Assembly (NCBI GenBank): GCA_003222295.1
Contig: QHVP01000105.1
Location: 1-37,632, forward strand
Reading direction: 5' to 3'
DNA length: 37,632 nt
Source: Acidobacteriota bacterium
Lineage (GTDB): Bacteria > Acidobacteriota > Vicinamibacteria > Fen-336
Numbering within the stretch: position 1 is the stretch's first letter; each line of letters starts with the position of its first letter. A model generated the notes under the pieces. The model was not told the DNA's origin and made no database searches. It saw only the letters and a list, made by a program, of their open reading frames with translations. Position numbers and translations under genes: made by a program. Shown in pieces: positions 3,746-35,053 of the stretch.

Positions 3746-4594
3746 GTGAAGATCACGACGGACTGGCGGCGGCACCTCCACGACATCCGGACGCAGGAGA
3801 TCGAGCTCATCTTCTCGGCCTGCTCGCCGCGTGCCTTCGGCGAAGGCCTGGAGCTGGGGGCGGGCGATGGCTTCCAGAGTGCGCTCCTCAGCCGTTACGT
3901 GGCGCACCTCACGAGCACCGACTATGACGCCGCCATCGGGTCGTTGCCGTCCTCCCCGTCCGTCACCTACCAGGTCGGTGACGCGGAAGAAGTGGACAAG
4001 GCGTTCCCGGCATCCCACTTCGATCTCGTGTTCTCCTCGAACCTGCTCGAGCACGTCCCCGACCCCGTGCAGACGCTGAGAGGCGTCGCCACCATCCTGA
4101 AGGACGAAGGGATTACCATCCACGTGATTCCCAATGTGTTCTGGAAGCTATCCTCGATCGCTCTCTACATGCCCTACCGCTTCGCCACGCTGGTGGAGCG
4201 CATGACGCAGGCGACGCGGATGCAGGAAAGCGGCCACCAGCCCGTCAACAACCCGAAGACGCCGCGGCCGCGGCGATCGTTTCTCGCGCGGCAGCTCTGG
4301 CCGGAGCCGCACGGAGTCTCGAAGACGAACCGCGAGGAACTGCGCGCCTTCTCGCGCTCGCGCTGGCGCGAGGCCTTCGAGCGGGCGGGGCTCAGGGTCA
4401 TCACGATCTCGAGAGGACCGGTCGCTTCCGGGTACGGATTCGGCTTCGACTCCCTGCGAACGGGCCTGCGGCGTCTGGGCCTGGCCTCGGAGTATGTCTA
4501 CGTGGCGGCCAAGGCCGGTCGCACCAGCCCCTACGAAACCTTCTTTCGCAGCGTACGAGCCGGTCCCCTCGGGCGAGCGGAGAGACGATCGTGA
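3746..4594 (+). CDS. Class I SAM-dependent methyltransferase (Methyltransf_11-like)
   Basis: It has motif I LELGAGDGF, FDLVFSSNLLEHVPDP and LKDEGITIHV. I chose GTG 3746 as the start (GTGA overlap) because the tracked start at 3632 lies in Arg/Pro-rich sequence that overlaps the deacetylase frame. Confidence 0.75.
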   Translation: MKITTDWRRHLHDIRTQEIELIFSACSPRAFGEGLELGAGDGFQSALLSRYVAHLTSTDYDAAIGSLPSSPSVTYQVGDAEEVDKAFPASHFDLVFSSNLLEHVPDPVQTLRGVATILKDEGITIHVIPNVFWKLSSIALYMPYRFATLVERMTQATRMQESGHQPVNNPKTPRPRRSFLARQLWPEPHGVSKTNREELRAFSRSRWREAFERAGLRVITISRGPVASGYGFGFDSLRTGLRRLGLASEYVYVAAKAGRTSPYETFFRSVRAGPLGRAERRS

Positions 4595-7470
4595 TCGGCG
4601 GCAGGGCGGAGAGCCGTGATCCGGATACGCCCGGGCGTGGCGCGGCGCTCCGCGCCCCGCGGGTCGCCTTGGCGATCCTCGGCCTCTTCACCCTTGATCC
4701 TCTCCGGGCGGCGCCGTCTCCCCGTCCGACCGCGACCGTCGCCGAGCGCCCGCGCCTGCAGGCGGATACCACTCCTTTCGCGGCGACGACGGCCACCGTG
4801 ATCGTCCGCGCGGGCGACGATCTTCAGGCCGCCCTCGACCTGGCCCGACCCGGCGACGTCCTCGTCCTCCAGGCCGGAGCCACCTTCACCGGTCCCTTCA
4901 CCCTTCCCGAGAAGCGGGGCCAGGGCCCGGCATCATGGATCACCATACGCAGCAGCACCCCGGACACGGCCCTGCCGCCCGGAATCCGAATCCACCCTCG
5001 TCAGGCCGCGCAGCTCGCGCGCCTCGAAGCGGCCTCGGGCTCGGTGATCTCCGCGGCCCCGCGCGCCCACCATTTCCGCCTGGTCGGCCTCGAGCTGCGG
5101 CCGGCCCCGGGGACGTTCCTGTATCAGGTGGTGGACCTCGGTGGGGCCGCATCCTCGGCGGAGGACCTGCCTCGTTACGTCGTCATCGACCGCTGCTACC
5201 TCCACGGCGATCCCGCCCGCAGCGGACGCCGCGGGGTGGCCCTCAACTCCGCAACCTCCGCGGTGGTGGACTCCTACCTGTCCGACTTCAAGGAGCTGGG
5301 CGCCGATTCCCAGGCGATCGCGGGGTGGAACGGCCCCGGCCCGTTCAAGATCGCCAACAACTATCTGGAGGCGGCGGGAGAGAACGTGATGTTCGGCGGG
5401 GCCACCCCGGCCATCGCCGGCCTCGTCCCGTCGGACATCGAGATCCTTGGAAACCATCTGGCCAAGCCGCTGACCTGGCGTGCCGGAGACCCCGCCTTTC
5501 AGGGTGTGAGCTGGTCGGTGAAGAACCTCTTCGAGCTGAAGAACGCACGGCGCGTCCTGATCGACGGCAACCTCATGGAGCACAACTGGGTGCAGTCGCA
5601 GGACGGATTCGCGGTCCTGTTCACGGCGCGAGACGAAGCGGGCGCGGCCCCGTGGGCGGCGGTCGAGGACGTGACCTTCAGCAACAACACGGTCCGTCAC
5701 ACCGGATCGGGGGTCAACCTCATCGGTCACGGCGGAAGGACCGCGGTCACACGCAGGATCCTCATCCGCAACAATCTGTTCGACGATGTGAGCGGCGAGA
5801 GGTGGGGTGGGAGCGGCCGCCTCCTCCAGATGGTGGAAGGGGCGGACGACATCGCCTTCGACCACAACACGGCGCTCCAGACGGGCAGCCTCGTGATCGC
5901 CGACGGTGCGCCCCACGCGCGATTCGCCTTCACCAACAACATCGCGCCCCACAACGCCTACGGGGTGATCGGGAGCGGGAGCGCATCTGGCCTGCCCACG
6001 CTCCGCGCGTTCTTCCCGGGTGCCCGCTTCGAGGGCAATGTCATCGTCGGAGGCCAGGCCGAGAGATATCCGCCGGGAAACTTCTTCGCTCCGTCGCTGG
6101 AAGCGATCGGGTTCGACGGGGCGGCGGGCGACTATCGTCTGGGCGTCACCAGCCCTTATCGGCGAAGCGGCACCGACGGCACGGACCCGGGTGCCGACTT
6201 CAGCGAGCTCCTTGCCGTGGCCGCCGTGCCCAGCGCCTCCTTCGCGATCCCTTCCACGTCGGGGCCGGCGGCCGGGGGCCCTGCCGCGAGGATGTGGAAT
6301 CGAGTCCGCACGCGGGCCCGGGAGGCGGGCTGGCCGCGGGCAGTGTTCTGGTCCGCGGTCGTCCTGCTCGCCTATCCGTATGTCGCCTATCCCCTGCTCA
6401 TCTGGGCCTGGGCCGCCGTGCGTCCGCGACCCCCGCGCATGGGAGCGGAGCCATCGGTGACGGTGGTCATCGTGGCTCATGACGAGGAGGAGCGAGTACA
6501 GGAGCGGATCGATAACGTCCTCGCCCAGGACTATCCGCGGGACCGTCTCGACGTCGTGCTCGCGTCCGACGGCTCTGCCGACCGAACGGCTGAGCGAGCT
6601 CGCGCCCACGGCGGAGCGGGGGTGGAGGTACGGAGCTTCGATCAGAGGCGCGGAAAGCCTTCCGTCCTCAACGACGTCGTCCCGCAGGCCCGTGGTGAGG
6701 TGGTGCTGCTCGCCGACGTCCGGCAGCGCTTCGATGCGGGCACCGTGCGCGCGCTCGTCTCGTGCTTCGCCGATCCGCGCGTCGGGGCCGTGAGCGGGGA
6801 GCTGGTACTCACTTCGCCTTCCGGCGGTCACGGGGTCAGGGATGGTGTCGACCTCTACTGGCGTTACGAAAAGGCGATTCGCCGCCACGAGAGCGTGGTC
6901 GATTCGACGGTCGGGGCCACCGGCGCCATCTACGCCATCCGCCGCGACCTGTTCGAGCCGCTGCCGCCGGACACGGTCCTGGACGACGTCCTCATCCCGC
7001 TGCGCATCGTCGGCCGCGGATATCGCGTGCTCTTCGAGCCGCGCGCCGTCGCCCACGACGCGGCGGCATTCGGCTCGCGCCAGGAGTTCGGGCGCAAAGT
7101 CCGCACCCTGGCCGGGAACTTCCAGCTCTTCTCCCGACACCCGTGGGTCCTGGGGCCCTTCCGGAACCGCCTTTGGTTCCAGACCGTCTCCCACAAGGCC
7201 TTGCGCCTCTTGACTCCGCTCCTCCTCGCCGCCGCCTTCGCCGCGAACATCCTTCTCGCGCGGACGCCCTTCTATCGCCTGCTGCTCGCCGGGCAGGCAT
7301 CGTTCTACGCGGCCGCCCTGGCGGGCGCGGCGCTCGGAAACGGAAGGCGCCGCCTTCCGCTGCTTTCCGTGCCCTTTGTGATCTGCCTGCTCAGCTGGGC
7401 GACGGTCGTCGGCTTCTTCCGTTTCCTCGCCGGCCGGCAGCGCGTGACGTGGGATCGGGCGTCCGCGTAG
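4591..7470 (+). CDS. Fusion protein: signal/anchor, right-handed beta-helix (pectin-lyase-fold-like) domain, TM segment, glycosyltransferase family 2 core, three C-terminal TM segments
   Basis: A single 959-codon frame starting at GTG 4591 (GTGA overlap). The N-terminal half has a repetitive beta-helix-like pattern (NNYLEAAGENVMFGG, GNHLAKP, DGNLMEHN, SNNTVRH, RNNLFDD, DHNTALQ, TNNIAPHN) and ends GDYRLGVTSPYRRSGTDGTDPGADF. The C-terminal half has GT2 motifs VTVVIVAHDEE, ASDGSADRT, LLADVRQ, GATGAIYAIRRDLF, LDDVLIPLRIVGRGY and RKVRTLAGNFQ. Hydrophobic helices flank the GT2 core. Confidence 0.8.
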   Translation: MIGGRAESRDPDTPGRGAALRAPRVALAILGLFTLDPLRAAPSPRPTATVAERPRLQADTTPFAATTATVIVRAGDDLQAALDLARPGDVLVLQAGATFTGPFTLPEKRGQGPASWITIRSSTPDTALPPGIRIHPRQAAQLARLEAASGSVISAAPRAHHFRLVGLELRPAPGTFLYQVVDLGGAASSAEDLPRYVVIDRCYLHGDPARSGRRGVALNSATSAVVDSYLSDFKELGADSQAIAGWNGPGPFKIANNYLEAAGENVMFGGATPAIAGLVPSDIEILGNHLAKPLTWRAGDPAFQGVSWSVKNLFELKNARRVLIDGNLMEHNWVQSQDGFAVLFTARDEAGAAPWAAVEDVTFSNNTVRHTGSGVNLIGHGGRTAVTRRILIRNNLFDDVSGERWGGSGRLLQMVEGADDIAFDHNTALQTGSLVIADGAPHARFAFTNNIAPHNAYGVIGSGSASGLPTLRAFFPGARFEGNVIVGGQAERYPPGNFFAPSLEAIGFDGAAGDYRLGVTSPYRRSGTDGTDPGADFSELLAVAAVPSASFAIPSTSGPAAGGPAARMWNRVRTRAREAGWPRAVFWSAVVLLAYPYVAYPLLIWAWAAVRPRPPRMGAEPSVTVVIVAHDEEERVQERIDNVLAQDYPRDRLDVVLASDGSADRTAERARAHGGAGVEVRSFDQRRGKPSVLNDVVPQARGEVVLLADVRQRFDAGTVRALVSCFADPRVGAVSGELVLTSPSGGHGVRDGVDLYWRYEKAIRRHESVVDSTVGATGAIYAIRRDLFEPLPPDTVLDDVLIPLRIVGRGYRVLFEPRAVAHDAAAFGSRQEFGRKVRTLAGNFQLFSRHPWVLGPFRNRLWFQTVSHKALRLLTPLLLAAAFAANILLARTPFYRLLLAGQASFYAAALAGAALGNGRRRLPLLSVPFVICLLSWATVVGFFRFLAGRQRVTWDRASA

Positions 7471-7471
7471 C

Positions 7472-8317
7472 GTGTCCACCTCTGTGCGGATCGGCCTCGC
7501 CCAGCTCTTGGTGGAAGGGGGCGAGGCCGCGCGCAACCTCGACCGTGCGGCGGCCCTGGTCGCGCAGGCGGCCGCGTTGGGTTGCCAGATCGTCCTGCTC
7601 CCGGAGTGCCTCGACCTCGGCTGGACCCATCCGAGCGCGATGCACGAGGCCCAGCCCATCCCGGGTCCGATCAGCGAACGGCTGGGTGCGCTCGCGCGGG
7701 AGTTCGGCATCTTCGTCTGCGGGGGACTGACGGAGCGCGAGGGCGACCGCACCTACAACACCGCCGTCCTTCTCGACCCCGCGGGCGCGCTGCTCCTGAA
7801 GTACCGGAAGATCAATCTCCTCGTCGTGGAGCAGCCGTACTACTCGGTGGGCCGCTCGCTTTCGGTGGTGGAGACCGCGCTGGGCGTGGTCGGCGTGAAC
7901 GTCTGCGCGGACAACTACGCCGACTCCCTCGCCATCGGCCACACCCTGGCCCGGATGGGATCGCAGATCATCCTCTCGCCCTCGTCCTGGACGGTCGACT
8001 ACTCGATCGGCGAGGGGGAGGATCCGTACGGACAGAAGTGGATCGCGCCGTACACGCTGCTGGCGCGTCTCTACGACCTCGTGATGGTCGGCACGACCAG
8101 CGTCGGCTACATCGTGGGCGGACCCTACGAGGGAAAGAAGATGGTCGGCTGCTCGCTGGTCGTGAACAAGGACGGGGTGCTGGCCCGCGGCCGCTACCTG
8201 GAGTTCGCGAGCGACCTCGTGACGGTCGACGTGCCCGTCCCCGTGCGGCCCGAAAAGGGGACCGCCATCGGCGAGATGCTGAAGCGGAAGGGCTACCGCT
8301 TTGACGGACTGGCTTGA
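7472..8317 (+). CDS. Carbon-nitrogen hydrolase (nitrilase superfamily)
   Basis: GTG start one nt after the upstream stop. The Glu-Lys-Cys triad contexts are IVLLPECLD, LLKYRKINL and VGVNVCADN. At 281 aa the length is typical for the family. Confidence 0.85.
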   Translation: MSTSVRIGLAQLLVEGGEAARNLDRAAALVAQAAALGCQIVLLPECLDLGWTHPSAMHEAQPIPGPISERLGALAREFGIFVCGGLTEREGDRTYNTAVLLDPAGALLLKYRKINLLVVEQPYYSVGRSLSVVETALGVVGVNVCADNYADSLAIGHTLARMGSQIILSPSSWTVDYSIGEGEDPYGQKWIAPYTLLARLYDLVMVGTTSVGYIVGGPYEGKKMVGCSLVVNKDGVLARGRYLEFASDLVTVDVPVPVRPEKGTAIGEMLKRKGYRFDGLA

Positions 8318-8362
8318 TCCCCCGCCGGGGACGCTTCCCTTCCTCGACTCCTCACCGATGTC

Positions 8363-8391
8363 TTGACACCGGCGAGCCGCCCGCGTAACCT
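8363..8391 (+). promoter_or_regulatory. Sigma-70-like promoter candidate: TTGACA, 17-nt spacer, TAACCT
   Basis: The -35 element is at 8363-8368 and the -10 at 8386-8391. It lies in the 88-nt gap upstream of ATG 8406. Confidence 0.35.
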
Positions 8392-8405
8392 CCGCTCGCC
8401 GAGTC

Positions 8406-9626
8406 ATGCGCGCATCCGCGGCCGAGCCCATAGAAGCCTTCCCGCCGCCGCCGGTGACGCCTCTCGCCGACGGCGCCTACCGCCTCTGCCGCCGGTGCAT
8501 CATGGACACCAGCGCGGAGGCGATCACCTTCGACGCAGATGGCGTCTGCAGCTTCTGCAAGCTCCACGACGCGCTCGACCGCTTGTACCCGGCGGGAGCG
8601 GAAGGGGAGCGGCACCTGCGCACCCATCTCGAACGCATCCGCCGCCAGGGCCGCGGGGCGCGCCACGACTGCATCCTGGGCCTCAGCGGAGGCCGCGACA
8701 GCACGTACATGCTGTACCTGGCCGTCAAGGAGTGGGGCCTCCGCCCCCTGGCCGTCCACTTCAACGACGGCTTCGACAATCCGGTGGCCGGCGAGAACAT
8801 CAAGAACGCCGTCGATCGCCTCGGTGTCCCCCTGCGGACGATCACCTCCGACTGGCGGGAGTCCAAGGACATCCGTATCGCGTTCCTGCGCGCGTCCACG
8901 CCCACGCTGGAGACGGGAACGGACCTCGGCATCTTCGCCGCCCTCTATGGCGCGGCAGCGCGAGAGGGGCTGAAGTACGTCCTCACCGCGCACTCGTTCC
9001 GCACGGAGGGGATCGCCCCGCTGACCTGGACCTATGTGGATGGCCGCTACCTCGACGCGGTGCACCGCCGCTTCGGCACCGTGCGCCGCCGGCGCTGGCG
9101 GCCCGGGGATCCCGGCTTCAACCTCGGGCTCCGCCATCTCGCGTACTACATCCTGATGCGCGGCATCCGTGCCCTCACGCCGATGTATCACGTCGACTAC
9201 GTGCGGAAGCAGGCGGAGTCCGTGATCACCCACGAGCTCGGCTGGCAGAACCCCGGAGCACACTACTTCGACGATCTCTACCAGAGCCTGCTCTGGCACG
9301 TCCATCGCGTGAAGTTCGGCATCGACAAGCGTCGCTTCAACTATTCGGCGCTCGTGCGGGCGGGGCAGCTCGGTCGCGTCGAGGCCCTGGAGCGAATCCG
9401 CCAGGTGTACTTCGTAGAGGATCCGAAATTTGTCGGTCTCTGCGTGAAGCGGCTGGGCCTCACCCCGGGCGAGCTCGAGGAGATCCTCGCCGCTCCTCCG
9501 CTCTCCTTCCGCGACTACCCGAACGACCTGCGGATCCTGGCCCTACTCGAGCCCCTCGTGTGGCTGGCCAGCCGCCTGCAGCTGGTGCCGCTCGCCACCT
9601 ACGACAAGTTCTTCCGCTGCGGCTGA
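8406..9626 (+). CDS. N-acetyl sugar amidotransferase (PP-loop ATP pyrophosphatase; WbuX/WbpG/PseA-type)
   Basis: It has an N-terminal Cys cluster (CRRCIMDTS...DADGVCSFCKLHD) followed by the PP-loop motif ILGLSGGRDSTYMLY. Length is 406 aa. The architecture matches the TIGR03573-type family as I remember it. Confidence 0.8.
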   Translation: MRASAAEPIEAFPPPPVTPLADGAYRLCRRCIMDTSAEAITFDADGVCSFCKLHDALDRLYPAGAEGERHLRTHLERIRRQGRGARHDCILGLSGGRDSTYMLYLAVKEWGLRPLAVHFNDGFDNPVAGENIKNAVDRLGVPLRTITSDWRESKDIRIAFLRASTPTLETGTDLGIFAALYGAAAREGLKYVLTAHSFRTEGIAPLTWTYVDGRYLDAVHRRFGTVRRRRWRPGDPGFNLGLRHLAYYILMRGIRALTPMYHVDYVRKQAESVITHELGWQNPGAHYFDDLYQSLLWHVHRVKFGIDKRRFNYSALVRAGQLGRVEALERIRQVYFVEDPKFVGLCVKRLGLTPGELEEILAAPPLSFRDYPNDLRILALLEPLVWLASRLQLVPLATYDKFFRCG

Positions 9627-9629
9627 GAA

Positions 9630-9666
9630 CCCTCGCCTCCGCGCCCGCGCCGGGCGCGCGCGAGGG
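9630..9666 (+). terminator. GC-rich compound hairpin downstream of the amidotransferase gene (terminator-like, weak U-tract)
   Basis: CCCTCGC (9630-9636) pairs with GCGAGGG (9660-9666). Inside, GCGCCCG (9641-9647) pairs with CGGGCGC (9651-9657). Only TT follows the hairpin. Confidence 0.35.
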
Positions 9667-9696
9667 TTGACGGCTCGCGCCGCCGAAGGGTATATT
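9667..9696 (+). promoter_or_regulatory. Sigma-70-like promoter candidate: TTGACG, 18-nt spacer, TATATT
   Basis: The -35 element is at 9667-9672 and the -10 at 9691-9696. ATG 9707 lies 11 nt after the -10, so the mRNA would be leaderless or nearly so. Confidence 0.45.
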
Positions 9697-9706
9697 CGCG
9701 CCTTTC

Positions 9707-10676
9707 ATGGCAGCCCGATCTGACATCCCCTAGCCACATCTTCATCACCGGAGGCGCCGGCTTCATCGCCTCCCACCTCATCGAGAGGCTCGTCGATCGC
9801 CATCGCATCACCATCTACGACAACCTCCACCGCAACGCGTTCCGGTACACGCGCCTGCAGGGCCACCGCAACCTGACCTTCGTCGAAGGCGACGTCCTGG
9901 ACGCGGAGAAGCTCGCCGCTTCCATGGCCGGCGCCGACACCTGCGTGCATGCGGCCGCCATCGCCGGCATCTACAGCGTCGGCAAGAAGGCCACGCTGAC
10001 CATGAAGGTGAACTTCCTCGGCTCGTATCACGCGCTGGAGGCGGCGGTGCGCAACGGCGTCCGCCGCTTCGTCGACTTCTCCACGAGCGAGGTCTACGGC
10101 CCCTTCGTGTACCGCGGCAAGGAGACGGACGAGACGACGCTGGGGCCGGTGGGGGAGAAGCGTTGGGTCTACGCCGTCAGCAAGCTCGCGGGCGAGCATT
10201 TCGCTCACTGCTACGCCGAGGAGTACGGCCTCGCCGTCACCTCCGTGCGTCCCTTCAACGTGTACGGCCCCCGCCAGATCGGAGAGGGCGCGGTACAGCA
10301 GATGGTGCGGCGGGCCCTCCGCGACGAGGACATCACCGTGTTCGACGACGGGACCCAGATCCGATCCTGGTGCTACGTGACCGACTTCGTGGACGGCCTC
10401 GAGAAGGCCCTCGTCCGCGAGGACGCCGCCAACGAGTCGTTCAACCTCGGCAACCCGCAGGCGACCATTACCGTGCTCGGCCTCGCCCAGACGATCGTGC
10501 GCATGACGGGTTCGCGCTCCCGCGTCGTGTTCAAGCCGCACCCGGGTCCCGAGGTCCAGATGCGCGTCCCCGACATCTCGAAGGCGCGCAGGCGGCTGGG
10601 TTTCGACCCCCGGGTCGGCCTCGAGGAAGGCCTGGGACGGTGCATCGAGTGGTACCGGGAGAACCCCGACGCCTAG
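9707..10676 (+). CDS. NAD-dependent epimerase/dehydratase (extended SDR), with its start region out of frame (ATG 9707 is +1 relative to the body)
   Basis: The body frame encodes IFITGGAGFIASHL (Rossmann motif, nt 9738-9779), YAVSKLAGE (YxxxK) and RPFNVYGPRQ. That frame has no ATG, GTG or TTG between the upstream stop (9624-9626) and 9924. ATG 9707 sits just after a promoter-like element but runs into TAG at 9731. Confidence 0.8.
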
Positions 10677-13034: not shown

Positions 13035-15368
13035 ATGGCCACCGCCGGCCTGTTCCTGGCCGTCGTCCTCGTGGCCGGCCTCTGCGGCTACGGGATCGTG
13101 AGCCTGCTCCTGCCCGAGGAGTACCGGGACGAGTTCGCCCTGCTGCTGATGCCGCCCGTCGGGTACTGCTTCTACTCGTGGGTCGCCTTCGACGTGTCGG
13201 GCAGCTTTGTGCTTCCCGGATACGACGTCACGATCATCGCCCTCGCCGTCGTCGCGTTTCTCGGCCTGGCCTCCCTCGTGCACCGGCGCCCCACGATGGC
13301 CATGGTGCGCGGCCTCTGGCCGACGCTGCCGGTCAGCCTCGCCGCCACCGCGATCGGACTCTGGCCCCTCTTCGCCGTGGGCGCGACGACCTTCCTCGGA
13401 GCCGTGAACCCCGACTACACCGCGACCCTGGTCGACCTCCACTACCTGGAAACGCACCCCGTGCAGGCGGCGCCTCCCTCCCGGACGCAGTACACCTATT
13501 CCTACTTCCATAACGTCATGGGCGGCATCGGCGTCGCCGCGCGTTTCGGATGCTCCTACTTCGTGATGATGGTGCGCGCGCTGCTCGGGCTCCCGCACCG
13601 TACCGCACTCACCGTGTGCATCGGCCTGTTCCTCTTCTGCATGTCGCCCTCGGTCTATTTCATGGCGCGGGTGGCCTTCGGGCTTCGCCGGAGGGCGGCC
13701 CTGATCGCGGCCGCCCTCATCATGCTCCTGAGCCCGGTCACCATGAGCTTCGTCTACTCCTACGTTGGCCAGAACTCGGGCCTGGGGGTTCTGCCCGCCG
13801 TGATCACGCTGGCCTACGTCGCGGTGCGCCGGCCGGGTTTCCGCACCGTCCTCCTGGCCACGCTGATGGTGAACGGCCTCTACGTCATGTACACGGCCAT
13901 GGTGCCGTACGTGCTGGCCCCCGTGGGCGTCGTCGCCGTCTACCTCCTGCTGACGCGCCGCCTCCGCTGGCGTGCGGCCGTCGGCATGGCCGCCGGGTTC
14001 GTGGCCGTGAGCCTCGTCCTCAACTGGGGCCTCCTGCCGTTCCTGGGGCGGGCCTTCAAGGGCTGGAACCGCCTCGTGACCCAGACCCTCCAGGGGCAAT
14101 ACTTCATCGACTTCCTGACCGAGCAATTCCTGCCCCTCTTTCTGGGGCTCATCAGCTACCCGACGAGCGCCTCCCTCTACGCACCGTACCTGACCGACAA
14201 GGGCCGCCTCCTCCTGTACTTCGTCACGGCCACCGTGATCGTCACCATGGTTGCGGTCTTCGTACGCTGGGCCCGCAGGCAACCCGATAGGCCGGCGGCG
14301 GCCCTGGCTCTCGCCTCCGCCACCATCTATTCAATCGTCTGGTACACGTATACCTTCCGGCGGCCCTACGGCTACGCGCTCTTCAAGATGTGCTCGTGGC
14401 TGCAGTTCGTCTACGTGATGCCCCTCGCCTACGCGCTCGACGAGGCTTCGGGATGGGGCCTCGCCCGCCGCGGAATCCGCCGCTGGGCCACGCGGGCCGT
14501 GTGGCCGATCTGCGTGTTCGTGCTCTTCGCGGATGCCATCTCCACCGCCCACCTGTCGCGCCTGAGCCTTGGCCACGACACCCGGCGGGGGATGATCGTC
14601 AATCTCTACGAGATGTCCGGGAACAACGACTACCTGGAGCTGGCGGACGAGGTGGGACGCCGCGTGGGCCCGCTCCGCTCGGTAGGGATGAGCTTCGTCG
14701 ACTCGATCCAGAACGAGTGGGTCGGCTACTACCTTCGCGACCTGCGCACGTCCCTCTTGGGTCACTACATCATCCCCGCCGACGACGAGAACCTGCCCAG
14801 CATCATCTCGCGCTGGGTGACCGACTACTACGGGAACGGAAACGTGGACTTCAATTACTACTTCCACGGTGCCACCGACGACTACTACCTGACCTGGAGC
14901 GACCGCCACCTGAACCGCGACATCGTGGAGCGCGACCTGCCCCCGCCGATGTGGGAGAACGGGACCTTCCGCCTGCAGCGCGCGGCCGACTGTCCGGGAT
15001 TCATCTTCACGGGGCGCGGCTGGTACCGCCTCGAGTTCCGCCACACCTGGGACTGGTGGTGGCCGGACCGCTTCCGGTGGACGGCGGAAGGCGGCGAGAT
15101 CTACATGCTTCGCGGCAAGGCCGGCCAGCCCTATCGCCTGTCCTTCTATGGGATCGTCGGCCACGGTCTCCGGAGCGAGAGCCGCACCGTCGAGCTGTGG
15201 ATGAACACCCGGAAGTTCGACGAGCTGACGATCACGGCGGCGGCGCGCGTCGTGTCCAAGCCCTTCTATCCGAGCGGTGGTGCCGATCGCCTCGTCATCC
15301 GCGTCAAGGAGCGCGTGCAGCCGCAGGCGGCGACTACCGCCGCCTCAACCTCCTGGTCGCGGGGGTGA
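13035..15368 (+). CDS. Large polytopic membrane protein with an extracytoplasmic C-terminal domain (candidate GT-C-type glycosyltransferase or polymerase). It probably continues into 15365-15796 after a frame change.
   Basis: The first ~480 aa contain more than 10 hydrophobic segments. These are followed by a soluble Trp/Tyr-rich region (GWYRLEFRHTWDWWWPDRFRWTAEGGEIYML). I recognised no family-specific catalytic motif. Confidence 0.7.
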   Translation: MATAGLFLAVVLVAGLCGYGIVSLLLPEEYRDEFALLLMPPVGYCFYSWVAFDVSGSFVLPGYDVTIIALAVVAFLGLASLVHRRPTMAMVRGLWPTLPVSLAATAIGLWPLFAVGATTFLGAVNPDYTATLVDLHYLETHPVQAAPPSRTQYTYSYFHNVMGGIGVAARFGCSYFVMMVRALLGLPHRTALTVCIGLFLFCMSPSVYFMARVAFGLRRRAALIAAALIMLLSPVTMSFVYSYVGQNSGLGVLPAVITLAYVAVRRPGFRTVLLATLMVNGLYVMYTAMVPYVLAPVGVVAVYLLLTRRLRWRAAVGMAAGFVAVSLVLNWGLLPFLGRAFKGWNRLVTQTLQGQYFIDFLTEQFLPLFLGLISYPTSASLYAPYLTDKGRLLLYFVTATVIVTMVAVFVRWARRQPDRPAAALALASATIYSIVWYTYTFRRPYGYALFKMCSWLQFVYVMPLAYALDEASGWGLARRGIRRWATRAVWPICVFVLFADAISTAHLSRLSLGHDTRRGMIVNLYEMSGNNDYLELADEVGRRVGPLRSVGMSFVDSIQNEWVGYYLRDLRTSLLGHYIIPADDENLPSIISRWVTDYYGNGNVDFNYYFHGATDDYYLTWSDRHLNRDIVERDLPPPMWENGTFRLQRAADCPGFIFTGRGWYRLEFRHTWDWWWPDRFRWTAEGGEIYMLRGKAGQPYRLSFYGIVGHGLRSESRTVELWMNTRKFDELTITAAARVVSKPFYPSGGADRLVIRVKERVQPQAATTAASTSWSRG

Positions 15369-19435: not shown

Positions 19436-21025
19436 TCACCGGCACGACTTGAGGTCCGCGCTGGTGAGATAGGCACGGACGTGTCCGAGCTCGGGACGGC
19501 CGAGGAGGTCCGGCACCGGCACCGCGCAGCCGGGGTTGACGAGGGCGAGGAACTCGGCGGCGATGCGCCCGGCCTGGCCCCGATGATGTACGACGTCGCG
19601 GCCGCCGACCGACAAGAGGGTGAGGTAGGCCGCGTCGGCGGGCAGAGCTTCCATCTCGGCCCGCCAGTCGTCTCCCCAGGAGCCCAGCGTCCAGCCGTCC
19701 AGCGCCGGTGACGGCCGCCCGAGCCGCTCGTAGAGCAAGACTCGCAGGACGTCGCAGTTGTAGGCAAGGTCGGGGAGCGGCGCGTAGAGGACGTTCGTCG
19801 CGATGACCACGTGTCGTTCCATCGGGCGGCGGCGCAGCGCGCCCGCGAGCGCATCCGCGTCGGCGGCCAGCGCGGGCAGGGCGGCCGCGGCTTGCGGCCC
19901 GATCCCGGAGGCGCCGACGGCATGACCGTAGATCTGGAACGAGAGCACGAGCGTCGAGAGGACGGTGACGAGGACGGCCCTTCCGCGGAGCGGTGGAAGC
20001 GCGCCCACCACCGCCACGCACAGGACGAAGAGAGCGGGCGCGAGCCAGACCACGAGGACGGCCGCCGGCGGCGGCGTGGCCGAAAAGACGAGGTCGACAA
20101 GGACGAGCAGGAGGAGACCGAAGAAAATCCGCCGCCTCGGGTCGGGTTGTCTCTGCCTCGGCGGACGGACCACGATGCCCACGGCGGAGGCCACCACCAG
20201 CCACGAGGCCGGCGAGTGGAGCAGGAGAGCGGACGGATAGAACGAGGCGGTCTTCCAGACTCGGCCGGGGGCGGTCACGAAGAACGCGCTCGTCTGCGCG
20301 GCCGGCGTGGACGCGGCGATCGCGCTCAGGTTGTAGGCGATGACGTCGCGCAGCGCGAGGCCGGCATAGCCGAGGGAGGCCGCGGCCACGGCGGCCCACG
20401 CCCATGGCCGCGACCGCACGCGCGCGACCAGGCGGCCCGGCCCTTGGATCCCGGTGACGAAGGCCGCGATCCAGGCGAGAGCGACCACGGAGACGGCCGG
20501 ACCCTTGGAAAGCATCGCCAGCAGCGAGAGCCACGCCGCCGCCAGTGGCCGGTCGACGAGGAGGGCGAACACGGCGGCGGAGGCCGCGAGCACCGCCGCC
20601 GGGTCGAACCGCTGGTCCAGCAGCCCCCCCGGACGGAAGACCAGGGGCGTGAAGGAGAAGAACACGACGGATGCGAGCAGGGGACGTTCCGCGGGATGGC
20701 GCGCCTCCGCCGCGCGCGCGGCCAGGAACCACACGCCCACGAGGGCAGCCCAACCCCAACCCCAGGCGGCTCGGCCGGGTCCCACGACGAGCGACGCCAG
20801 GGAGAAGAAGACGACGGACAGGAGGTTGTTGACGTCCATTCTCAGGAAGGCGACGTACTCACGGAGCCGAAGGTGCTGGAGTTCGAGCCCGCGGCTGGAG
20901 GCGCGCGCGACGAGGTTGGCCGCGTCCTGGATGGGCGGGACGTGGCCGAGGCCCCAGTAGGGGAAGATCAGCACGGCCAGGGCGAGGAGCACGGCGTAGA
21001 CGGTGGCCGGTCGGGCCCCCGTCAT
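19436..21025 (-). CDS. Polytopic membrane protein with a C-terminal soluble domain (candidate GT-C-type glycosyltransferase)
   Basis: 529 aa, with about 11-13 hydrophobic segments and then a ~130-aa soluble tail. Its ATG overlaps the upstream methyltransferase stop (ATGA). No specific family recognised. Confidence 0.7.
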   Translation of the reverse strand: MTGARPATVYAVLLALAVLIFPYWGLGHVPPIQDAANLVARASSRGLELQHLRLREYVAFLRMDVNNLLSVVFFSLASLVVGPGRAAWGWGWAALVGVWFLAARAAEARHPAERPLLASVVFFSFTPLVFRPGGLLDQRFDPAAVLAASAAVFALLVDRPLAAAWLSLLAMLSKGPAVSVVALAWIAAFVTGIQGPGRLVARVRSRPWAWAAVAAASLGYAGLALRDVIAYNLSAIAASTPAAQTSAFFVTAPGRVWKTASFYPSALLLHSPASWLVVASAVGIVVRPPRQRQPDPRRRIFFGLLLLVLVDLVFSATPPPAAVLVVWLAPALFVLCVAVVGALPPLRGRAVLVTVLSTLVLSFQIYGHAVGASGIGPQAAAALPALAADADALAGALRRRPMERHVVIATNVLYAPLPDLAYNCDVLRVLLYERLGRPSPALDGWTLGSWGDDWRAEMEALPADAAYLTLLSVGGRDVVHHRGQAGRIAAEFLALVNPGCAVPVPDLLGRPELGHVRAYLTSADLKSCR

Positions 21026-22022: not shown

Positions 22023-23933
22023 TCAGGCCAGAGGCGCGGCCCGAGACGCCGCCGGTGCCTGCGCCGTAAACGCCGTGGGCAGGCGCTGCAGCCAGGCCTC
22101 GAGCGCCACCAGCGTGAAGATCTTGCGCGAGTAGTCTCCGCGGCCCCGCAGGTGCGCGGAGACGAGCGACTCCACGACCTCCGGCCGGAAGAAGCCGCGG
22201 CGCCGCAGCGTCCCCGCCGAAAGCAGATCCCCCATCCAGGGGCGGAGCGGACCGCGGAGCCACTCCCCGAGGGGCACGTCGAAACCGTGCTTGCGCCGGC
22301 GCGCGACCGCCGGCAGGTCGGCCAGCGCCCGGCGCAGGAGCCGCTTCCCGCGTCCCCACCGCACCTTGTAACCACCGGGAAGGCGGAAGGCGGATTCCAC
22401 GAGCGCACGGTCCAGGAACGGTACGCGGGCCTCGAGGCCGCGGGCCATCGTCATGCGGTCGACCTTCGCCAGCATCTCGTCGACGAGGGTGGTGCGGAGG
22501 TCGGCGCGCAGCCGGCGGTTGACCTCGTCGCCCCCCGGTTCGGTCTCGTAGGCGAGGCGCACGGGGTTCTCCGCCCACGCCCGCGCCGCCACCTCCGCCA
22601 GCTCGGGGTGGAGCAGCGCCTCCATCTCCTCGGGCACGAAGGCGGTCACGATCTCGGCGTAGCGCTCGCCCGGCGAGCGCATCCGCCGCAAGCGGCCGGC
22701 GAGCTCGCCGCGCAGACCGGGCGCGCCCAGGCGCGCCCCGCGCGCGCTGCGGGCGACGGTCATGCCCAGGCGGCGGAGGAGCGTACGCGGCGAGGTCTCC
22801 GGCTCGTGGCGCCACGGATAACCGCCGAGCGTCTCGTCGGCGCCGTCGCCGGTGAGGACCACCTTGACGTGCTCACGGGCGAGGCCGGCCAGGTGGTAGA
22901 GCGCGAAGGCGGAGGACACCGCGAACGGCTCGTCGAAGCGGGCCATGACCTCGGGCAGCGAGGACGCGTGGCCGGGACCCAGGTGGAGCTCGTGGTGCTC
23001 GGTCCCGAGCTGCGCGGACACGCGGCGGGCGTGCGGGGACTCGTCCTCGGTGCGCCCGTCGAAGCGCACCGAGAACGTGTGCAAGGGCGACGCCGACGCG
23101 TCGCGCGCGGCGCGCGTGACCGCGGTGGAGTCGAGGCCCCCGCTCAGGAACGTGCCCACGGGGACGTCGGCCACGAGGTGGGAGCGGACGGCGGCATCGA
23201 GCCGCGAGCGAAAGGCGTGCGCCGCCGCCGCGAAACCGGCGGGCCTCTCGTCCTCGGCGGGGGGACCTTCCCAATAGCGCGCCGTACGCACCGTGCCCTC
23301 TTCGACCACGGCGTAGTGGGCGGGAGGGAGCCTCGCCACACCCTCCACGATCGAAGTGCCGCCGGGCACGCTCGACTGGTACAGGTAATGTACGACCGCA
23401 GACGGGCTCACGTCCCGTGGCATCCCGCCCAGGGCGAAAAGCGCGCCCAGCTCGGATCCGAACACCACGTCGGTGTCGCGCCGGGCATAAACGAGCGGCT
23501 TGATGCCGAGGCGGTCGCGGGCGAGGAGGAGGCGCCGTCGCCGGGCGTCCCACAGGGCGAACGCGAACATTCCGTCGATCGACTGCAGCAGCCCTTCGCC
23601 CTCCTCCTCGTAGAGGTGCACGAGGATCTCGGTGTCGGTGCGGGAGCGGAAGCGGTGACCCCGCTGCTCGAGACGCCGCCGGAGCGGCTCGAAGTCGTAG
23701 AGCTGGCCGTTGTAGACGAGCCAGACGGTGCCGTCCTCGTTCGCCATCGGCTGGTGCCCGGCCGGGCTCGGATCCAGGATGGCGAGGCGCCGGCTGGCCA
23801 GGCCCAGGCCCGGCTCGGCATGGAAGCCTTGGTCGTCCGGGCCCCGATGTGAGAGCGCACGCGCCATGGCGCGCAGCTCCGCGGGATCGACGGGCGCTCC
23901 ACCCGCACGCAAGATGCCCGCGATGCCACACAT
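22023..23933 (-). CDS. Asparagine synthase (glutamine-hydrolysing) family amidotransferase, AsnB-like paralog 1
   Basis: It has the N-terminal nucleophile MCGIAG, then HRGPDD and YNGQLYDF, and the PP-loop-type motif FLSGGLDST. Length is 636 aa. Confidence 0.9.
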   Translation of the reverse strand: MCGIAGILRAGGAPVDPAELRAMARALSHRGPDDQGFHAEPGLGLASRRLAILDPSPAGHQPMANEDGTVWLVYNGQLYDFEPLRRRLEQRGHRFRSRTDTEILVHLYEEEGEGLLQSIDGMFAFALWDARRRRLLLARDRLGIKPLVYARRDTDVVFGSELGALFALGGMPRDVSPSAVVHYLYQSSVPGGTSIVEGVARLPPAHYAVVEEGTVRTARYWEGPPAEDERPAGFAAAAHAFRSRLDAAVRSHLVADVPVGTFLSGGLDSTAVTRAARDASASPLHTFSVRFDGRTEDESPHARRVSAQLGTEHHELHLGPGHASSLPEVMARFDEPFAVSSAFALYHLAGLAREHVKVVLTGDGADETLGGYPWRHEPETSPRTLLRRLGMTVARSARGARLGAPGLRGELAGRLRRMRSPGERYAEIVTAFVPEEMEALLHPELAEVAARAWAENPVRLAYETEPGGDEVNRRLRADLRTTLVDEMLAKVDRMTMARGLEARVPFLDRALVESAFRLPGGYKVRWGRGKRLLRRALADLPAVARRRKHGFDVPLGEWLRGPLRPWMGDLLSAGTLRRRGFFRPEVVESLVSAHLRGRGDYSRKIFTLVALEAWLQRLPTAFTAQAPAASRAAPLA

Positions 23934-23935
23934 GG

Positions 23936-25051
23936 CTAGCGCGGGAGGGCCGCGCTCAGCTTCTCGATGAGGGCCAGGCGTTCGCGGGCGGCGCGGTCGA
24001 GATCGCGGATGACTTGCTCCTTCTCACGAAGTTTCTCTTGCAGGGCGCGGATCGTTTGCTGCGACCCGGCGGCCGCGAGACGCGTCTCCTCGAGCAGTGC
24101 CGCCGTCTCCACCGGCAGGTCCATGTAGGCCTGGCTGAACGCGCTCAGGATGAGCGCCACCACCTCCGGCTTCACATGGCGGTTGTCGCTGGAGAACGGA
24201 GAATCAAACAGGCTCAGCGCCAGCTCATAGGAGGGAAAATAGTGGCACCGGCCGGTGGCCGCCACCTCTGGAATGGACAAGAACGCATCGAGGGCGGCGC
24301 GCAGGATGGCCTTGGAGATCGAGTTGGCCGTCACCGGCGACTGGTTGCGGAAGGTGGCGACGAAAGGGATCGGGGACAGCGTGAACACGAGCTGGAGCCG
24401 GGGGAGGAAGCGGGCGACGATGCGGTGAAGCTCGTGCAGCGCCGCCGTCGTCTCCTCCACCGTCGCCACCTTGAAGACGTGCCGCTCCGGGTCGTAGAGA
24501 CGCGCGGGAATGGACCGCCAGAGCACCTCGCCGTCGAGGCGGTCGTACCAGACCTCGGACATGCCGAGGGTGACGACCGCCACGTCGGCGTCCTCGAGGT
24601 TGGCGCGAATGTTCCGGCGGCGTTCGTCCGTCGCCTCGAAGTACTTCTTGTCCTTCGTGAACCACAGGTGGCTGGCGGGGGTGAACTCACCGAAAGCCCA
24701 TCGGAACTGCTGCACGACCACGAACGCGTTTTCGAAGGTGTTACCGAGGGACAAGAGCAGCGGCTCTTCGGAGAGGCCGTGCGCTTCGGCGGGGATGCGC
24801 CACTGGTTGTAGCCGCGCTCGCCGAGGAAGGCGATGAAGTACTCGGCGAAGCAGCTCCCGAAGGCGATCACCCGCGAAGAGCGCGAGATCAGCGGCCGCT
24901 CGGGGGCCCAACCCTGCATGACATCCGCTACCGACAGTGGCCGATCGGCGGGGTAGCGGTGGCAATGCTCGCCCCTGTACCAATGGTCTGCCTGCTGGAA
25001 GTCGAGGTCCTCGTCAGACTTCTTCCACGGCCCGATCCTGGGCTCGTTCAT
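23936..25051 (-). CDS. GSCFA-domain protein (SGNH-hydrolase-like, function unknown) with a C-terminal coiled-coil tail
   Basis: It contains the literal family motif in IAFGSCFAEYF. The last ~60 aa are heptad-like and charged (LQEKLREKEQVIRDLDRAARERLALIEKL). A GGAG lies upstream of the ATG. Confidence 0.8.
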   Translation of the reverse strand: MNEPRIGPWKKSDEDLDFQQADHWYRGEHCHRYPADRPLSVADVMQGWAPERPLISRSSRVIAFGSCFAEYFIAFLGERGYNQWRIPAEAHGLSEEPLLLSLGNTFENAFVVVQQFRWAFGEFTPASHLWFTKDKKYFEATDERRRNIRANLEDADVAVVTLGMSEVWYDRLDGEVLWRSIPARLYDPERHVFKVATVEETTAALHELHRIVARFLPRLQLVFTLSPIPFVATFRNQSPVTANSISKAILRAALDAFLSIPEVAATGRCHYFPSYELALSLFDSPFSSDNRHVKPEVVALILSAFSQAYMDLPVETAALLEETRLAAAGSQQTIRALQEKLREKEQVIRDLDRAARERLALIEKLSAALPR

Positions 25052-26304: not shown

Positions 26305-27134
26305 CGCCGGCGGTAGCGCTCGAACCAGAAGGGCGGCGCAGCCGCGGCGAGGAAGGGCCGGGCCGAGCAGTCGTCCCGGCCGGCGCGGAGGAACAGGTCG
26401 GCATGCGGGATCGTCGCGGAGACGTCGGTGAACCCGAGCTCGGCCAGCCATCTTTCGACCTCGGCCTGGGTGCAGCGATCGTTCACGAGCGGAGACAGCA
26501 GGTCGAACGCCTGATGGGTGTCGCGACGGGGGAAGAGCCGTGCCAGCAGCGTACGCTTGGCGCGGAAGCTCAAGCCCGCGAGACCGCCGCGGACAAGGGC
26601 GAGCGCCGCCCGCTGCCACGAGGTGAGCGCGTCCGCCCCGTAGAGGTAGACGAAGAGGAGCCCGTCCGGCCGGGTCAGGCCGGCGACGTTGGCCAGGGCG
26701 CCTCGCGTGTCGCCGGTGTGGTGGAGGACTCCGAAAGAGAAGACGAGGTCGAATCGCTGCGACGCGAGGAACTCGTCGAGAGCGAGCAAGTCGAGCTGTC
26801 GCAGGACCAGGCGACCGGCCGCCACCGCGTCCGGTACCAGGCGTTCCATCTGCGCCCGGGTGGAGTCGAGCGCGCAGGCGGAGAAATCGACGGCGGTGAC
26901 GCGAGCGCCCAGGCGGAGGAGGGCAAGTGTCCAACGGCCGCCGCCACAGCCGGCATCGAGCGCGTGGCGGCCGGCGAACCAGGCCGGAGATACGCCGAGC
27001 AGCTCGCGGGCGAGGATCCGGTCGGCATTGGCGACGAACCAGCCGTCGGAGAGCATGGCGTCACCGGCCGGGATCTCGCCCCATTGGTAGTCGAAGCTGG
27101 CCAGCGTCTGCCGGCGCCGCCGTTCATGCAACAC
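26301..27134 (-). CDS. Class I SAM-dependent methyltransferase
   Basis: Motifs seen: FDYQWG, motif I ALDAGCGGGRWT, FDLVFSFGVLHHTGD. I chose the in-frame GTG 27134 (or TTG 27131) as the start; it overlaps the end of the upstream asnB-like gene. Confidence 0.75.
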   Translation of the reverse strand: MLHERRRRQTLASFDYQWGEIPAGDAMLSDGWFVANADRILARELLGVSPAWFAGRHALDAGCGGGRWTLALLRLGARVTAVDFSACALDSTRAQMERLVPDAVAAGRLVLRQLDLLALDEFLASQRFDLVFSFGVLHHTGDTRGALANVAGLTRPDGLLFVYLYGADALTSWQRAALALVRGGLAGLSFRAKRTLLARLFPRRDTHQAFDLLSPLVNDRCTQAEVERWLAELGFTDVSATIPHADLFLRAGRDDCSARPFLAAAAPPFWFERYRRR

Positions 27135-31546: not shown

Positions 31547-34344
<2,798 letters not shown>

Positions 34345-34399
34345 CTAGCGTCCGTACCGGCGAGAGGTCAAACGAGGCGCGGCCGGGGAGTTCGCAGCC

Positions 34400-35053
34400 T
34401 CAGCGCCGGGGCGGGCCGAGGATCGTGTCGAGGGCCGCCGAGAGGGTGGCCTCCTGCACGTCCGGAAGCGCCGCCGCCAGCGCATCGCGGTTCGGGAATC
34501 CGCCGGGGATCCCGACCGCAAGCACCCCCGCCGCCTGCGCCATCTGCACGTCCTCGGGACTGTCGCCGACGTACGCGGCCGCGGCGGCTCCCACGCCGAG
34601 CTTGTCCAGGGCGAGGAGCAGCGCTTCCGGATGAGGCTTGCGGTAGACGATGTCCTCTGCGCACACCACCACATCGAACAGCTCGGCCACCCCGAGGCTG
34701 GTCAGCTCGCGGGCGACGCGCACGCGGTCGCCGCTGGTCACGATCCCCGCCCTCAGGCGCGCGCGGCGCACGCGCCGGAGCGCGTCCCGCGCGCCTTCGA
34801 TCAGGACGACCTCCTCCTCGCAGTAATGCTCGAGCCAGCGCGCATCCGCCTCCGCCCAGCGGTCCTCCGCCAGGCCCAACGCGGAGTAGGTGAGGTGCCA
34901 GTTCGGCGAGTACGTCCGCCGAAAGGCGTCACGGTCGAAAGCGATGCCGTACGAGCCGAACAGCTTCTCGTAGCACCGGAAGCTCGCCTCCGCCGTGTTG
35001 ACCAGGGTTCCGTCCCAGTCGAAGAGGACGGCTTGCAGGCGGTGGGCACGCAT
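34400..35053 (-). CDS. HAD-superfamily hydrolase (phosphoglycolate-phosphatase-like)
   Basis: Motif I is VLFDWDGTLV, motif II IVTSG, motif IV YVGDSPEDVQMA. ATG 35053 was chosen as the start, although the frame is open further upstream with no stop (see the next feature). Confidence 0.8.
   Translation of the reverse strand: MRAHRLQAVLFDWDGTLVNTAEASFRCYEKLFGSYGIAFDRDAFRRTYSPNWHLTYSALGLAEDRWAEADARWLEHYCEEEVVLIEGARDALRRVRRARLRAGIVTSGDRVRVARELTSLGVAELFDVVVCAEDIVYRKPHPEALLLALDKLGVGAAAAAYVGDSPEDVQMAQAAGVLAVGIPGGFPNRDALAAALPDVQEATLSAALDTILGPPRR

Follow-up and report, generated by a model that had tools for sequence, protein, structure and literature searches.

Acetamidino sugars are found in O-antigens and in the glycans of flagellin and capsules, and there they influence charge, immune recognition and the binding of phages. 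The source of the nitrogen in them is poorly characterised. The question of where this nitrogen comes from is raised by a 37.6-kb stretch of DNA (37,632 nucleotides, here called the window), which is the entire contig QHVP01000105.1 of an Acidobacteria metagenome-assembled genome (MAG; GCA_003222295.1) with a GC content of about 70%. In it a gene for a carbon-nitrogen (CN) hydrolase of the nitrilase superfamily lies directly upstream of a gene for a WbuX-like PP-loop N-acetyl-sugar amidotransferase (NASAT). An original prediction, made from the letters of this DNA, proposed that the hydrolase stands in for WbuY/WbuZ, the HisH/HisF-like pair, as the ammonia donor of the NASAT. This proposal is supported by the comparative sequence data presented below, and of the refuting conditions named with it, those open to computation all came out in its favour. 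We consider it fairly likely that the two proteins form an amidotransferase of two subunits, with a glutaminase of the nitrilase type (class IV) in place of HisH/HisF. The genes and motifs on which the question turns are as follows.

7472..8317, + strand: gene for the CN hydrolase (nitrilase superfamily, PF00795), 281 aa, GTG start.
7604..7906, + strand: span of the catalytic triad codons, with Glu45 at 7604-7606, Lys113 at 7808-7810 and Cys145 at 7904-7906.
8318..8405, + strand: 88-nt intergenic spacer between the hydrolase and the NASAT genes.
8406..9626, + strand: gene for the WbuX-like PP-loop NASAT (TIGR03573), 406 aa, ATG start.
8487..8558, + strand: tetracysteine zinc-ribbon motif (C28, C31, C48 and C51).
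8685..8702, + strand: PP-loop SGGRDS (residues 94-99), the ATP pyrophosphatase signature.

Both open reading frames (ORFs) are real genes, because in this contig of 70% GC their GC content at third codon positions (GC3) is 0.92 for the hydrolase and 0.90 for the NASAT. The hydrolase matches the Pfam family PF00795 (CN_hydrolase) over residues 16-254 with 110.7 bits against a cutoff of 23.2. The motifs LLPECLD, YRKINL and VNVCADN, in which the original prediction saw intact Glu, Lys and Cys contexts, were confirmed at these coordinates, and in an alignment of 22 hydrolase orthologues from several phyla E45, K113 and C145 are invariant. The AlphaFold2 (AF2) model of the hydrolase, with a predicted local distance difference test score (pLDDT) of 82.8 and a predicted template modelling score (pTM) of 0.87, has the alpha-beta-beta-alpha sandwich that is the standard fold of the nitrilase superfamily. 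The folds nearest to this model are those of the mouse Nit2 omega-amidase (2w1v) and of the Pyrococcus horikoshii amidase with glutaramide (6ypa), with template modelling (TM) scores of 0.77-0.8, and Foldseek returned Nit2, the PH0642 amidase, CPA and AmiF with E values of 1e-18 to 1e-21 and TM scores of 0.7-0.8. When the hydrolase was scored against the NCBIfam subfamily models it was far below the cutoffs of all of them, that is, of Lnt, AguB, formamidase, aliphatic amidase, deaminated-glutathione amidase, archaeal nitrilase and NadE. The best score was for nitrile_Arch, at 72 bits against a cutoff of 500, and those for Lnt, AguB and formamidase were 27 against 133, 55 against 410 and 34 against 406, respectively. 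It had been suggested that the hydrolase might group with a known unrelated subfamily such as the Lnt-like proteins or beta-ureidopropionase; what was found is a tight family of its own, with 60-70% identity between Acidobacteria, Omnitrophota and Hymenobacter, and on these scores it is an unnamed subfamily of CN hydrolases.

The NASAT matches TIGR03573 (WbuX) end to end (positions 2-343 of the 344 of the profile) with 183.3 bits, where the curated cutoff is 203.2, and a NASAT of the same clade (locus L025) scores 218.2 bits, which is above the cutoff. The Cys-rich N-terminus and the SGGRDS motif, which had led to its first assignment to the N-acetyl-sugar amidotransferases, are present and conserved: SGGRDS is invariant in 25 NASAT orthologues, two of the four cysteines (C48 and C51) do not vary, and the other two (C28 and C31) are nearly invariant. 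It has been shown that the N-terminal tetracysteine motif binds Zn in LpNASAT (PMC10607449). In the AF2 model of the window's NASAT (pLDDT 82.7) residues 1-21, which are not conserved, are disordered, and the single full-length structural match is LpNASAT (8WEX), with an E value of 5e-14 and a TM score of 0.58-0.61 over about 389 columns; the next matches have TM scores of about 0.26, and other PP-loop enzymes align with the model on the core alone. At the sequence level the likeness to this solved NASAT is remote (E 4e-8 over about 95 residues). The protein is not an NAD synthase, since it scores 16.3 bits against a cutoff of 255 with PRK13980 and PF02540 was not detected in it. In the same genomes in which the hydrolases were compared the NASAT is 54-62% identical to its orthologues. 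It was also observed that the hydrolase-linked NASATs share a conserved C-terminal end, Y-D-K-x-F-x-C-G, which in the window is at 9606-9623 (residues 401-406), with Lys401 invariant and Phe403 and Cys405 nearly invariant. Judged from its conservation, this tail could reach into an active site or a subunit interface.

The adjacency of the two genes is conserved in related genomes, whichever of them the search is started from. In the scan from the NASAT side, in which one genome per GTDB species was taken, 268 relatives were collected and the best 80 loci analysed, a hydrolase orthologue (51-69% identity) was present on the same strand in 76 of the 80, directly upstream in 72 and downstream within about 0.1-1.1 kb in 4. 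The scan from the hydrolase side was made in metagenomes and gave 80 loci, among which the NASAT was directly adjacent in 60, on the same strand within 0.45-3.6 kb in 10 and absent in 3; 7 were on contigs too short to judge, which leaves 73 informative loci. Thus, the partner is retained in about 95% of the informative loci from either starting gene (76/80 and 70/73). The pair is spread over at least eight phyla and was found in Bacteroidota, Omnitrophota, Planctomycetota, Bdellovibrionota, Verrucomicrobiota, Nitrospinota and Acidobacteria, and in two archaeal MAGs. The pairwise distances of the hydrolases and of the NASATs correlate with r = 0.87 over 115 distinct pairs, and none of 500 Mantel permutations was as high. 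The pairing of the hydrolase with the NASAT is not due to chance. In Hymenobacter the two genes form a unit of their own next to valS, without further sugar genes in the vicinity, and because the pair stands alone there, this points to a direct mutual dependence of the two proteins and not to a mere shared pathway. Two candidates that came up at other hydrolase loci were rejected. An AIR-synthase-superfamily protein after the hydrolase in L166, considered as a second (PurL-like) amidine-forming client, carries a ThiL signature and is in a housekeeping context, and a 390-aa N-terminal domain on a 2-epimerase in L160, considered as a cryptic NASAT, is an artefact of an over-extended Arg/Gly-rich ORF.

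The second line of evidence concerns the partners that the NASAT does not have. The original prediction had found no HisH- or HisF-like gene in the window, and this was borne out by Pfam scans of 26 ORFs and by six-frame tblastn with the E. coli HisH and HisF. The window being the whole contig, the refuting possibility that such genes lie just outside it could be followed in orthologous loci, and with the same two probes no HisH/HisF-like gene was found in any of 166 related loci with flanks of up to ±10 kb. The exhaustive search of the NASAT family gave 4112 representative proteins (E<=1e-3), among which the sampled nearest relatives outside the hydrolase-linked clade are at most about 44% identical to it. 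In six loci of these outgroup NASATs (L168-L173), HisH/HisF-like neighbours (GATase and/or His_biosynth) were present in five and a CN hydrolase in none, which is the anticorrelation with wbuY/wbuZ that had been suggested as a check. Both a GATase (HisH-like) and a His_biosynth (HisF-like) gene were found beside or near the NASAT in a Melioribacter-like genome, in Methanocella arvoryzae, in an Altiarchaeota MAG and in one further MAG; an Omnitrophota genome has a HisF-like gene near its NASAT, and one outgroup locus has neither. When the Methanocella operon, which has the order Hexapep-DegT-GFO-GT2-NASAT-HisH-HisF, is compared with that of the ingroup, GFO-Hexapep-DegT-Hexapep-GT2-(ArnF-like)-CNH-NASAT (CNH being the CN hydrolase), the two are alike in framework and differ in the putative ammonia donor. 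All six outgroup loci have a DUF354 (PF04007) gene and three of them have Epimerase_2, and neither is among the recurrent ingroup neighbours; DUF354 may belong to the canonical pathway for acetamidino sugars as a component that has not been characterised so far.

In a neighbour-joining tree the hydrolase-linked NASATs are one clade with a long stem, and the four ingroup loci that lack an adjacent hydrolase are nested within it. Because there is one such clade and the exceptions are inside it, the tree fits a putative single replacement of HisH/HisF at the base of the hydrolase-linked clade. Two of the four exceptions, L062 and L082, are recent NASAT duplicates in genomes that retain the paired copy. 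They belong to Hymenobacter sp. BT188 and H. roseosalivarius, respectively, where the second, nearly identical NASAT is without a hydrolase and is flanked by PMT_2 (GT-C) and LPG_synthase_TM genes while the paired copy is beside valS, and one hydrolase may serve both synthetases in trans.

A probable explanation for these data is that the NASAT would use ATP to adenylate the carbonyl oxygen of the N-acetyl group of an amino sugar, carried on a nucleotide or a lipid, and that ammonia would then displace AMP to leave a positively charged acetamidino group. The CN hydrolase would be the dedicated generator of this ammonia, using its Glu-Lys-Cys triad to hydrolyse glutamine, or another small amide like it, and handing the ammonia over to the NASAT as the synthetase subunit of a presumed complex. 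By doing so it would substitute for both HisH, the glutaminase, and the HisF-like protein, the channel, of other NASATs.

Several observations weigh against this explanation. The fold scores of formamidase and carbamoylputrescine amidase are almost equal to that of Nit2 for the hydrolase model, and with a modelled fold equally near to formamidases and carbamoylases, homology leaves the substrate of the hydrolase unfixed. A specific kinship to the glutaminase (G) domain of NadE, the nitrilase-type glutaminase of NAD synthetase, was not found either: the score with PRK13981, whose cutoff is 479 bits, is 43, and neither the PDB sequence matches of the hydrolase (E<=1e-3) nor its top 50 fold matches include a NadE chain. 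As the NCBIfam, PDB sequence and fold searches were all without it, orthology to the NadE glutaminase domain was rejected, and because no such kinship was found, the recruitment of the hydrolase would have been independent of NadE. A fusion of the CN hydrolase with the NASAT was looked for in the best 150 representatives of the family and in the top 120 close homologues of each protein, and none was found, which is the main gap in the comparative evidence. In about 10% of the loci the pair is split by intervening genes. Finally, the outgroup contexts come from six loci only, and the ingroup does not differ from the outgroup by a simple exchange of one donor for the other, since DUF354 and Epimerase_2 are missing from its recurrent neighbours and ArnF-like and GT-C genes appear there.

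The spacer between the two genes does not add to these points. The original prediction had seen a promoter-like element in the 88-nt gap and had counted the gap against an obligate coupling. A consensus scan of the gap found no promoter and no terminator; there is a TTGACA at 8364, but the best -10 candidate, TAACCT, matches at only 3 of 6 positions, so that the promoter-like element is weak and finds no support in the scan. Because the hydrolase and NASAT genes are typically closely spaced or overlapping in the orthologous loci, the element is no argument against coupling.

Fusions elsewhere in the NASAT family bear on how such enzymes obtain their ammonia. Six HisF-NASAT fusions were found among the 150 best family representatives, and in P0306 an AsnB-type glutaminase N-terminus is fused to a NASAT. 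In L042, an ingroup locus without the hydrolase, a nearby protein (6674-8692, + strand) has a class II glutaminase (GATase_7) fused to a NASAT-like region (E 3e-33); this protein gave no Asn_synthase Pfam hit. The class II (Ntn, AsnB-type) fusions in L042 and P0306 would be a third mode of coupling a glutaminase to NASATs, and, judged from these architectures, NASATs appear to recruit glutaminase machinery repeatedly and in several forms. One NASAT-LPG_synthase_TM fusion (P0249) was found among the same 150 representatives. It was also observed that fusions with GT4 are common (P0244, P0261, P0263, P0273, P0280 and about 20 other representatives), with the GT4 at the N- or the C-terminus, and that one NASAT protein of 1179 aa carries two GT4 units; because of these fusions, amidination would seem to be coupled to glycosyl transfer in the GT4-fused systems.

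In the loci outside Hymenobacter the pair is embedded in a recurring operon with the following genes.

UDP-GlcNAc 3-dehydrogenase-like (GFO/IDH/MocA) oxidoreductase.
DegT aminotransferase.
NeuD/PglB-family (hexapeptide) acetyltransferase.
ArnC/PgfS-like polyprenyl-phosphate GT2, which precedes the pair in most non-Hymenobacter loci.
ArnF-like small membrane protein, followed by the CN hydrolase and then the NASAT.
PMT_2 (GT-C) transferase or LPG_synthase_TM protein.

All matches to the Arn models are under the curated cutoffs and mean resemblance, not membership. The gene content suggests a route in which a 2,3-diacetamido-type sugar is made, loaded on a lipid, amidinated before or after loading, flipped and transferred to an envelope acceptor. 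Because the module is usually in such an Arn-like operon, it probably yields a cationic acetamidino sugar that is attached to a glycan or a lipid of the envelope. The wider reading is that a class IV glutaminase was independently recruited by NASATs, displaced HisH/HisF and now drives a widespread Arn-like pathway for a cationic acetamidino envelope sugar in Bacteroidota, Omnitrophota, Planctomycetota, Bdellovibrionota, Acidobacteria and some archaea; this we put forward tentatively, as a possible account. Genes for B12-binding and SPASM-type radical SAM proteins (families F25 and F36) also recur near the pair, in L007 (= L003), L010, L019, L057, L077, L084 and L086, which are loci of Omnitrophota, Planctomycetia, Bacteroidales and archaeal MAGs, and hint that the sugar undergoes other unusual modifications as well, for example methylation.

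The same operons leave room for a different role of the hydrolase, namely that it is a pathway enzyme acting on the sugar, as an ArnD-like de-N-formylase or de-N-acetylase, a decarbamoylase, or in trimming an amidine or amide of the lipid-linked sugar, and that the NASAT uses free ammonia. In fold and sequence it is about as near to the AmiF formamidase, N-carbamoylputrescine amidase and D-carbamoylase as to Nit2. Some operons have a formyltransferase (L005) or a carbamoyltransferase (family F33), and a hydrolase of this kind would be required for what these enzymes make; at the corresponding point of the Arn pathway there is a deformylation. That no fusion with the NASAT was found also counts in favour of this role. 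However, only a minority of the loci have a formyl- or a carbamoyltransferase, and the pair persists without any other sugar genes in Hymenobacter and across widely varying operon content elsewhere. The hydrolase is 60-70% identical across phyla whatever its context, and this suggests that it has one unvarying substrate, for example glutamine; the clean anticorrelation with HisH/HisF would be unexpected for a tailoring enzyme. We therefore consider this role unlikely, though it is the one that survives best among the alternatives.

A genuine two-subunit amidotransferase could also carry out another chemistry, either the conversion of a uronic acid to a uronamide or the amidination of a lipid-linked acceptor that is not a sugar. 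The clade is divergent from the characterised NASATs, as is seen in the score of 183 of the window's NASAT against the TIGR03573 cutoff of 203 and in its remote sequence likeness to the solved enzyme, the P0249 fusion and the recurring LPG_synthase_TM and GT-C neighbours point to a membrane-associated, lipid-linked substrate, and no reconstituted activity of any family member was found in the literature searched. On the other hand, an orthologue of the same clade passes the TIGR03573 cutoff with 218 bits and the fold matches 8WEX over the full length. The operons make a 3-acetamido sugar by WbpB/WbpE/WbpD-like enzymes, and such a sugar is the type of substrate that the acetamidino-forming WbpG uses. 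In clusters of this kind the formation of uronamides is usually ascribed to AsnB-like enzymes, and the window already has two of these. A different chemistry is on balance quite improbable.

That the hydrolase is a remote glutaminase subunit of a single-domain NAD synthetase or a nitrogen-salvage amidase, with its adjacency to the NASAT being historical, is extremely improbable, because although many genomes hold unassigned nitrilase homologues that are possible NadE G-subunits (De Ingeniis et al., PMC3376133) and the hydrolase has a weak match to the NadE model (43 bits), that score is far under the cutoff, no nadE-like gene is beside the pair in the loci with Pfam-annotated neighbours, and the mutual adjacency of about 95%, the transfer across at least eight phyla and the co-divergence require a functional link to the NASAT.

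Coming back to the two-subunit amidotransferase with a nitrilase-type glutaminase, its setting in the window differs from that of the recurring operon. By GC3-filtered ORFs and Pfam, the content of the window is a polysaccharide biosynthesis cluster of the ABC-transporter type, with no ArnF-like gene and no identifiable PMT_2 gene. Pfam matches in this cluster identify GT4 and GT2 glycosyltransferases, a UDP-sugar dehydrogenase, methyltransferases, a polysaccharide deacetylase, SDR epimerases/dehydratases, an FAD oxidoreductase, a Wzm/Wzt ABC exporter, a DegT aminotransferase and sulfate-activation genes. The genes that call for comment are these.

4591..7470, + strand: 959-aa protein with a GT2 domain (Pfam; residues ~621-888) and C-terminal hydrophobic segments.
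9627-10676, + strand: SDR epimerase/dehydratase, directly 3' of the NASAT gene.
13035-15368, + strand: polytopic membrane protein of 777 aa with at least 9 hydrophobic segments, without a Pfam match.
19436-21025, - strand: polytopic membrane protein of 529 aa with at least 7 hydrophobic segments, without a Pfam match.
22023-23933, - strand: full-length AsnB-like glutamine amidotransferase.
23936-25051, - strand: GSCFA-family protein.
27124-29073, - strand: second full-length AsnB-like glutamine amidotransferase.
32652-35727, - strand: APS kinase, ATP sulfurylase and a TauE/SafE-family fragment.
36066-37415: ORF with only a marginal PEP-CTERM match (E 0.07).

The stop of the 959-aa protein is 1 nt before the start of the hydrolase, but it is context outside the core pair, and its GT2 is only a loose relative of the GT2 family that precedes the pair elsewhere. 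The AsnB-like and GSCFA genes, which are near the DegT aminotransferase and methyltransferases, are in the same cluster as the pair and on the opposite strand, and they may form uronamides or carry out other amidations in the polysaccharide of the window. The 777-aa and 529-aa membrane proteins could be divergent GT-C transferases or polymerases that replace the PMT_2 genes of the other loci. As the APS kinase and ATP sulfurylase genes adjoin the polysaccharide cluster, the glycan of the window may be sulfated. In the SDR gene the Rossmann motif IFITGGAGF (~9738-9764) is in frame and upstream of the first canonical start (ATG at 9924), there is no ATG, GTG or TTG before it, and the ATG at 9707 is well placed but 1 base out of frame, which points to an indel of 1 nt in the assembly, to a true frameshift or to a start at a non-canonical CTG or ATC. 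At 9667-9696, in the region of this gene, there is a promoter-like site, TTGACG-18-TATATT, with 10 of 12 matches.

If the reading of the pair as a two-subunit amidotransferase holds, class IV glutaminases would serve another family of synthetases in addition to NAD synthetase, there would be a clear case of non-orthologous displacement, from HisH/HisF to a CN hydrolase within otherwise similar operons, and hundreds of proteins annotated as "carbon-nitrogen hydrolase family protein" would gain a more specific name. The Arn-like context points to an undescribed cationic modification of the envelope in several poorly studied phyla. Since the two-gene unit is small, soluble, strongly conserved and present in culturable Hymenobacter, the supply of ammonia is directly testable. 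The original prediction had called the pair an undescribed two-component amidotransferase. This stands in so far as no earlier link of CN hydrolases to NASAT, WbuX, WbpG or PseA was found in the literature searched, whose coverage leaves out most subscription journals, but the split nitrilase/PP-loop architecture as such has a precedent (PMC3376133). The paper on the structure of LpNASAT nowhere mentions a glutaminase partner (PMC10607449).

How the pair relates to known systems can be seen by taking these in turn. It shares with WbuX/WbuY/WbuZ of E. coli O145 and WbpG/HisH2/HisF2 of P. aeruginosa O5, the acetamidino-sugar systems in which a NASAT has HisH-like and HisF-like partners, the TIGR03573 synthetase family, the PP-loop, the tetracysteine Zn motif and the 8WEX-like fold, as well as the GFO/IDH/MocA oxidoreductase, DegT aminotransferase, hexapeptide acetyltransferase and GT2 neighbours. 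Unlike in these systems, a CN hydrolase is present and HisH/HisF are absent from the window and the 166 related loci, the NASATs are a separate clade with no more than about 44% identity to the nearest sampled relatives, and DUF354 is not a recurrent neighbour. The association of HisH/HisF with NASATs was verified here on genomes other than those of E. coli and P. aeruginosa. The likeness to the Arn (PmrHFIJKLM) pathway, which adds L-Ara4N to lipid A, consists in the ArnC-like GT2, the ArnF-like flippase subunit, the ArnT-like GT-C (PMT_2) and DegT, and in the likely outcome that a cationic sugar is added to the envelope. However, the sugar would be of a di-N-acylated hexosamine type and not Ara4N, the hydrolase-NASAT pair has no Arn counterpart, and the window, with its Wzm/Wzt ABC exporter, has neither the ArnF-like gene nor a PMT_2 gene that could be identified. 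All matches to Arn models are, as said, under the cutoffs. With the fused NadE/Qns1 of Mycobacterium tuberculosis and human, the paradigm of ammonia tunnelling, the pair has in common the superfamilies of a nitrilase-type glutaminase and a PP-loop synthetase, but here these are two genes and not one polypeptide, with no fusion among the sampled proteins, and the family and the substrate of the synthetase are different.

Of the known systems, the one nearest to the pair is the two-subunit NAD synthetase of Thermus thermophilus, in which the S-subunit (TTC1538) and the nitrilase-type G-subunit (TTC1539) are encoded in one operon (De Ingeniis et al. 2012, PMC3376133). It has been shown experimentally that these subunits form a tight 1:1 complex that uses glutamine, and in the classification given in the same report the nitrilase-like "class IV" glutaminase is listed for NAD synthetase only (PMC3376133). 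In both cases a stand-alone nitrilase-superfamily hydrolase and a stand-alone PP-loop ATP-dependent synthetase of the adenine nucleotide alpha-hydrolase superfamily are side by side, and the proposed logic, a class IV glutaminase feeding an adenylating synthetase, is the same. The synthetase here is a NASAT, which scores 16 bits with NadE models, and the hydrolase is no orthologue of the NadE G-domain; the acceptor would be the amide carbonyl of a sugar and not a carboxylate on deamido-NAD; and the complex, which was demonstrated in T. thermophilus, is for the hydrolase and the NASAT a prediction from their conserved pairing. What the comparison says is that this pair would work like the NAD synthetase of T. 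thermophilus, not that it is a member of the same family.

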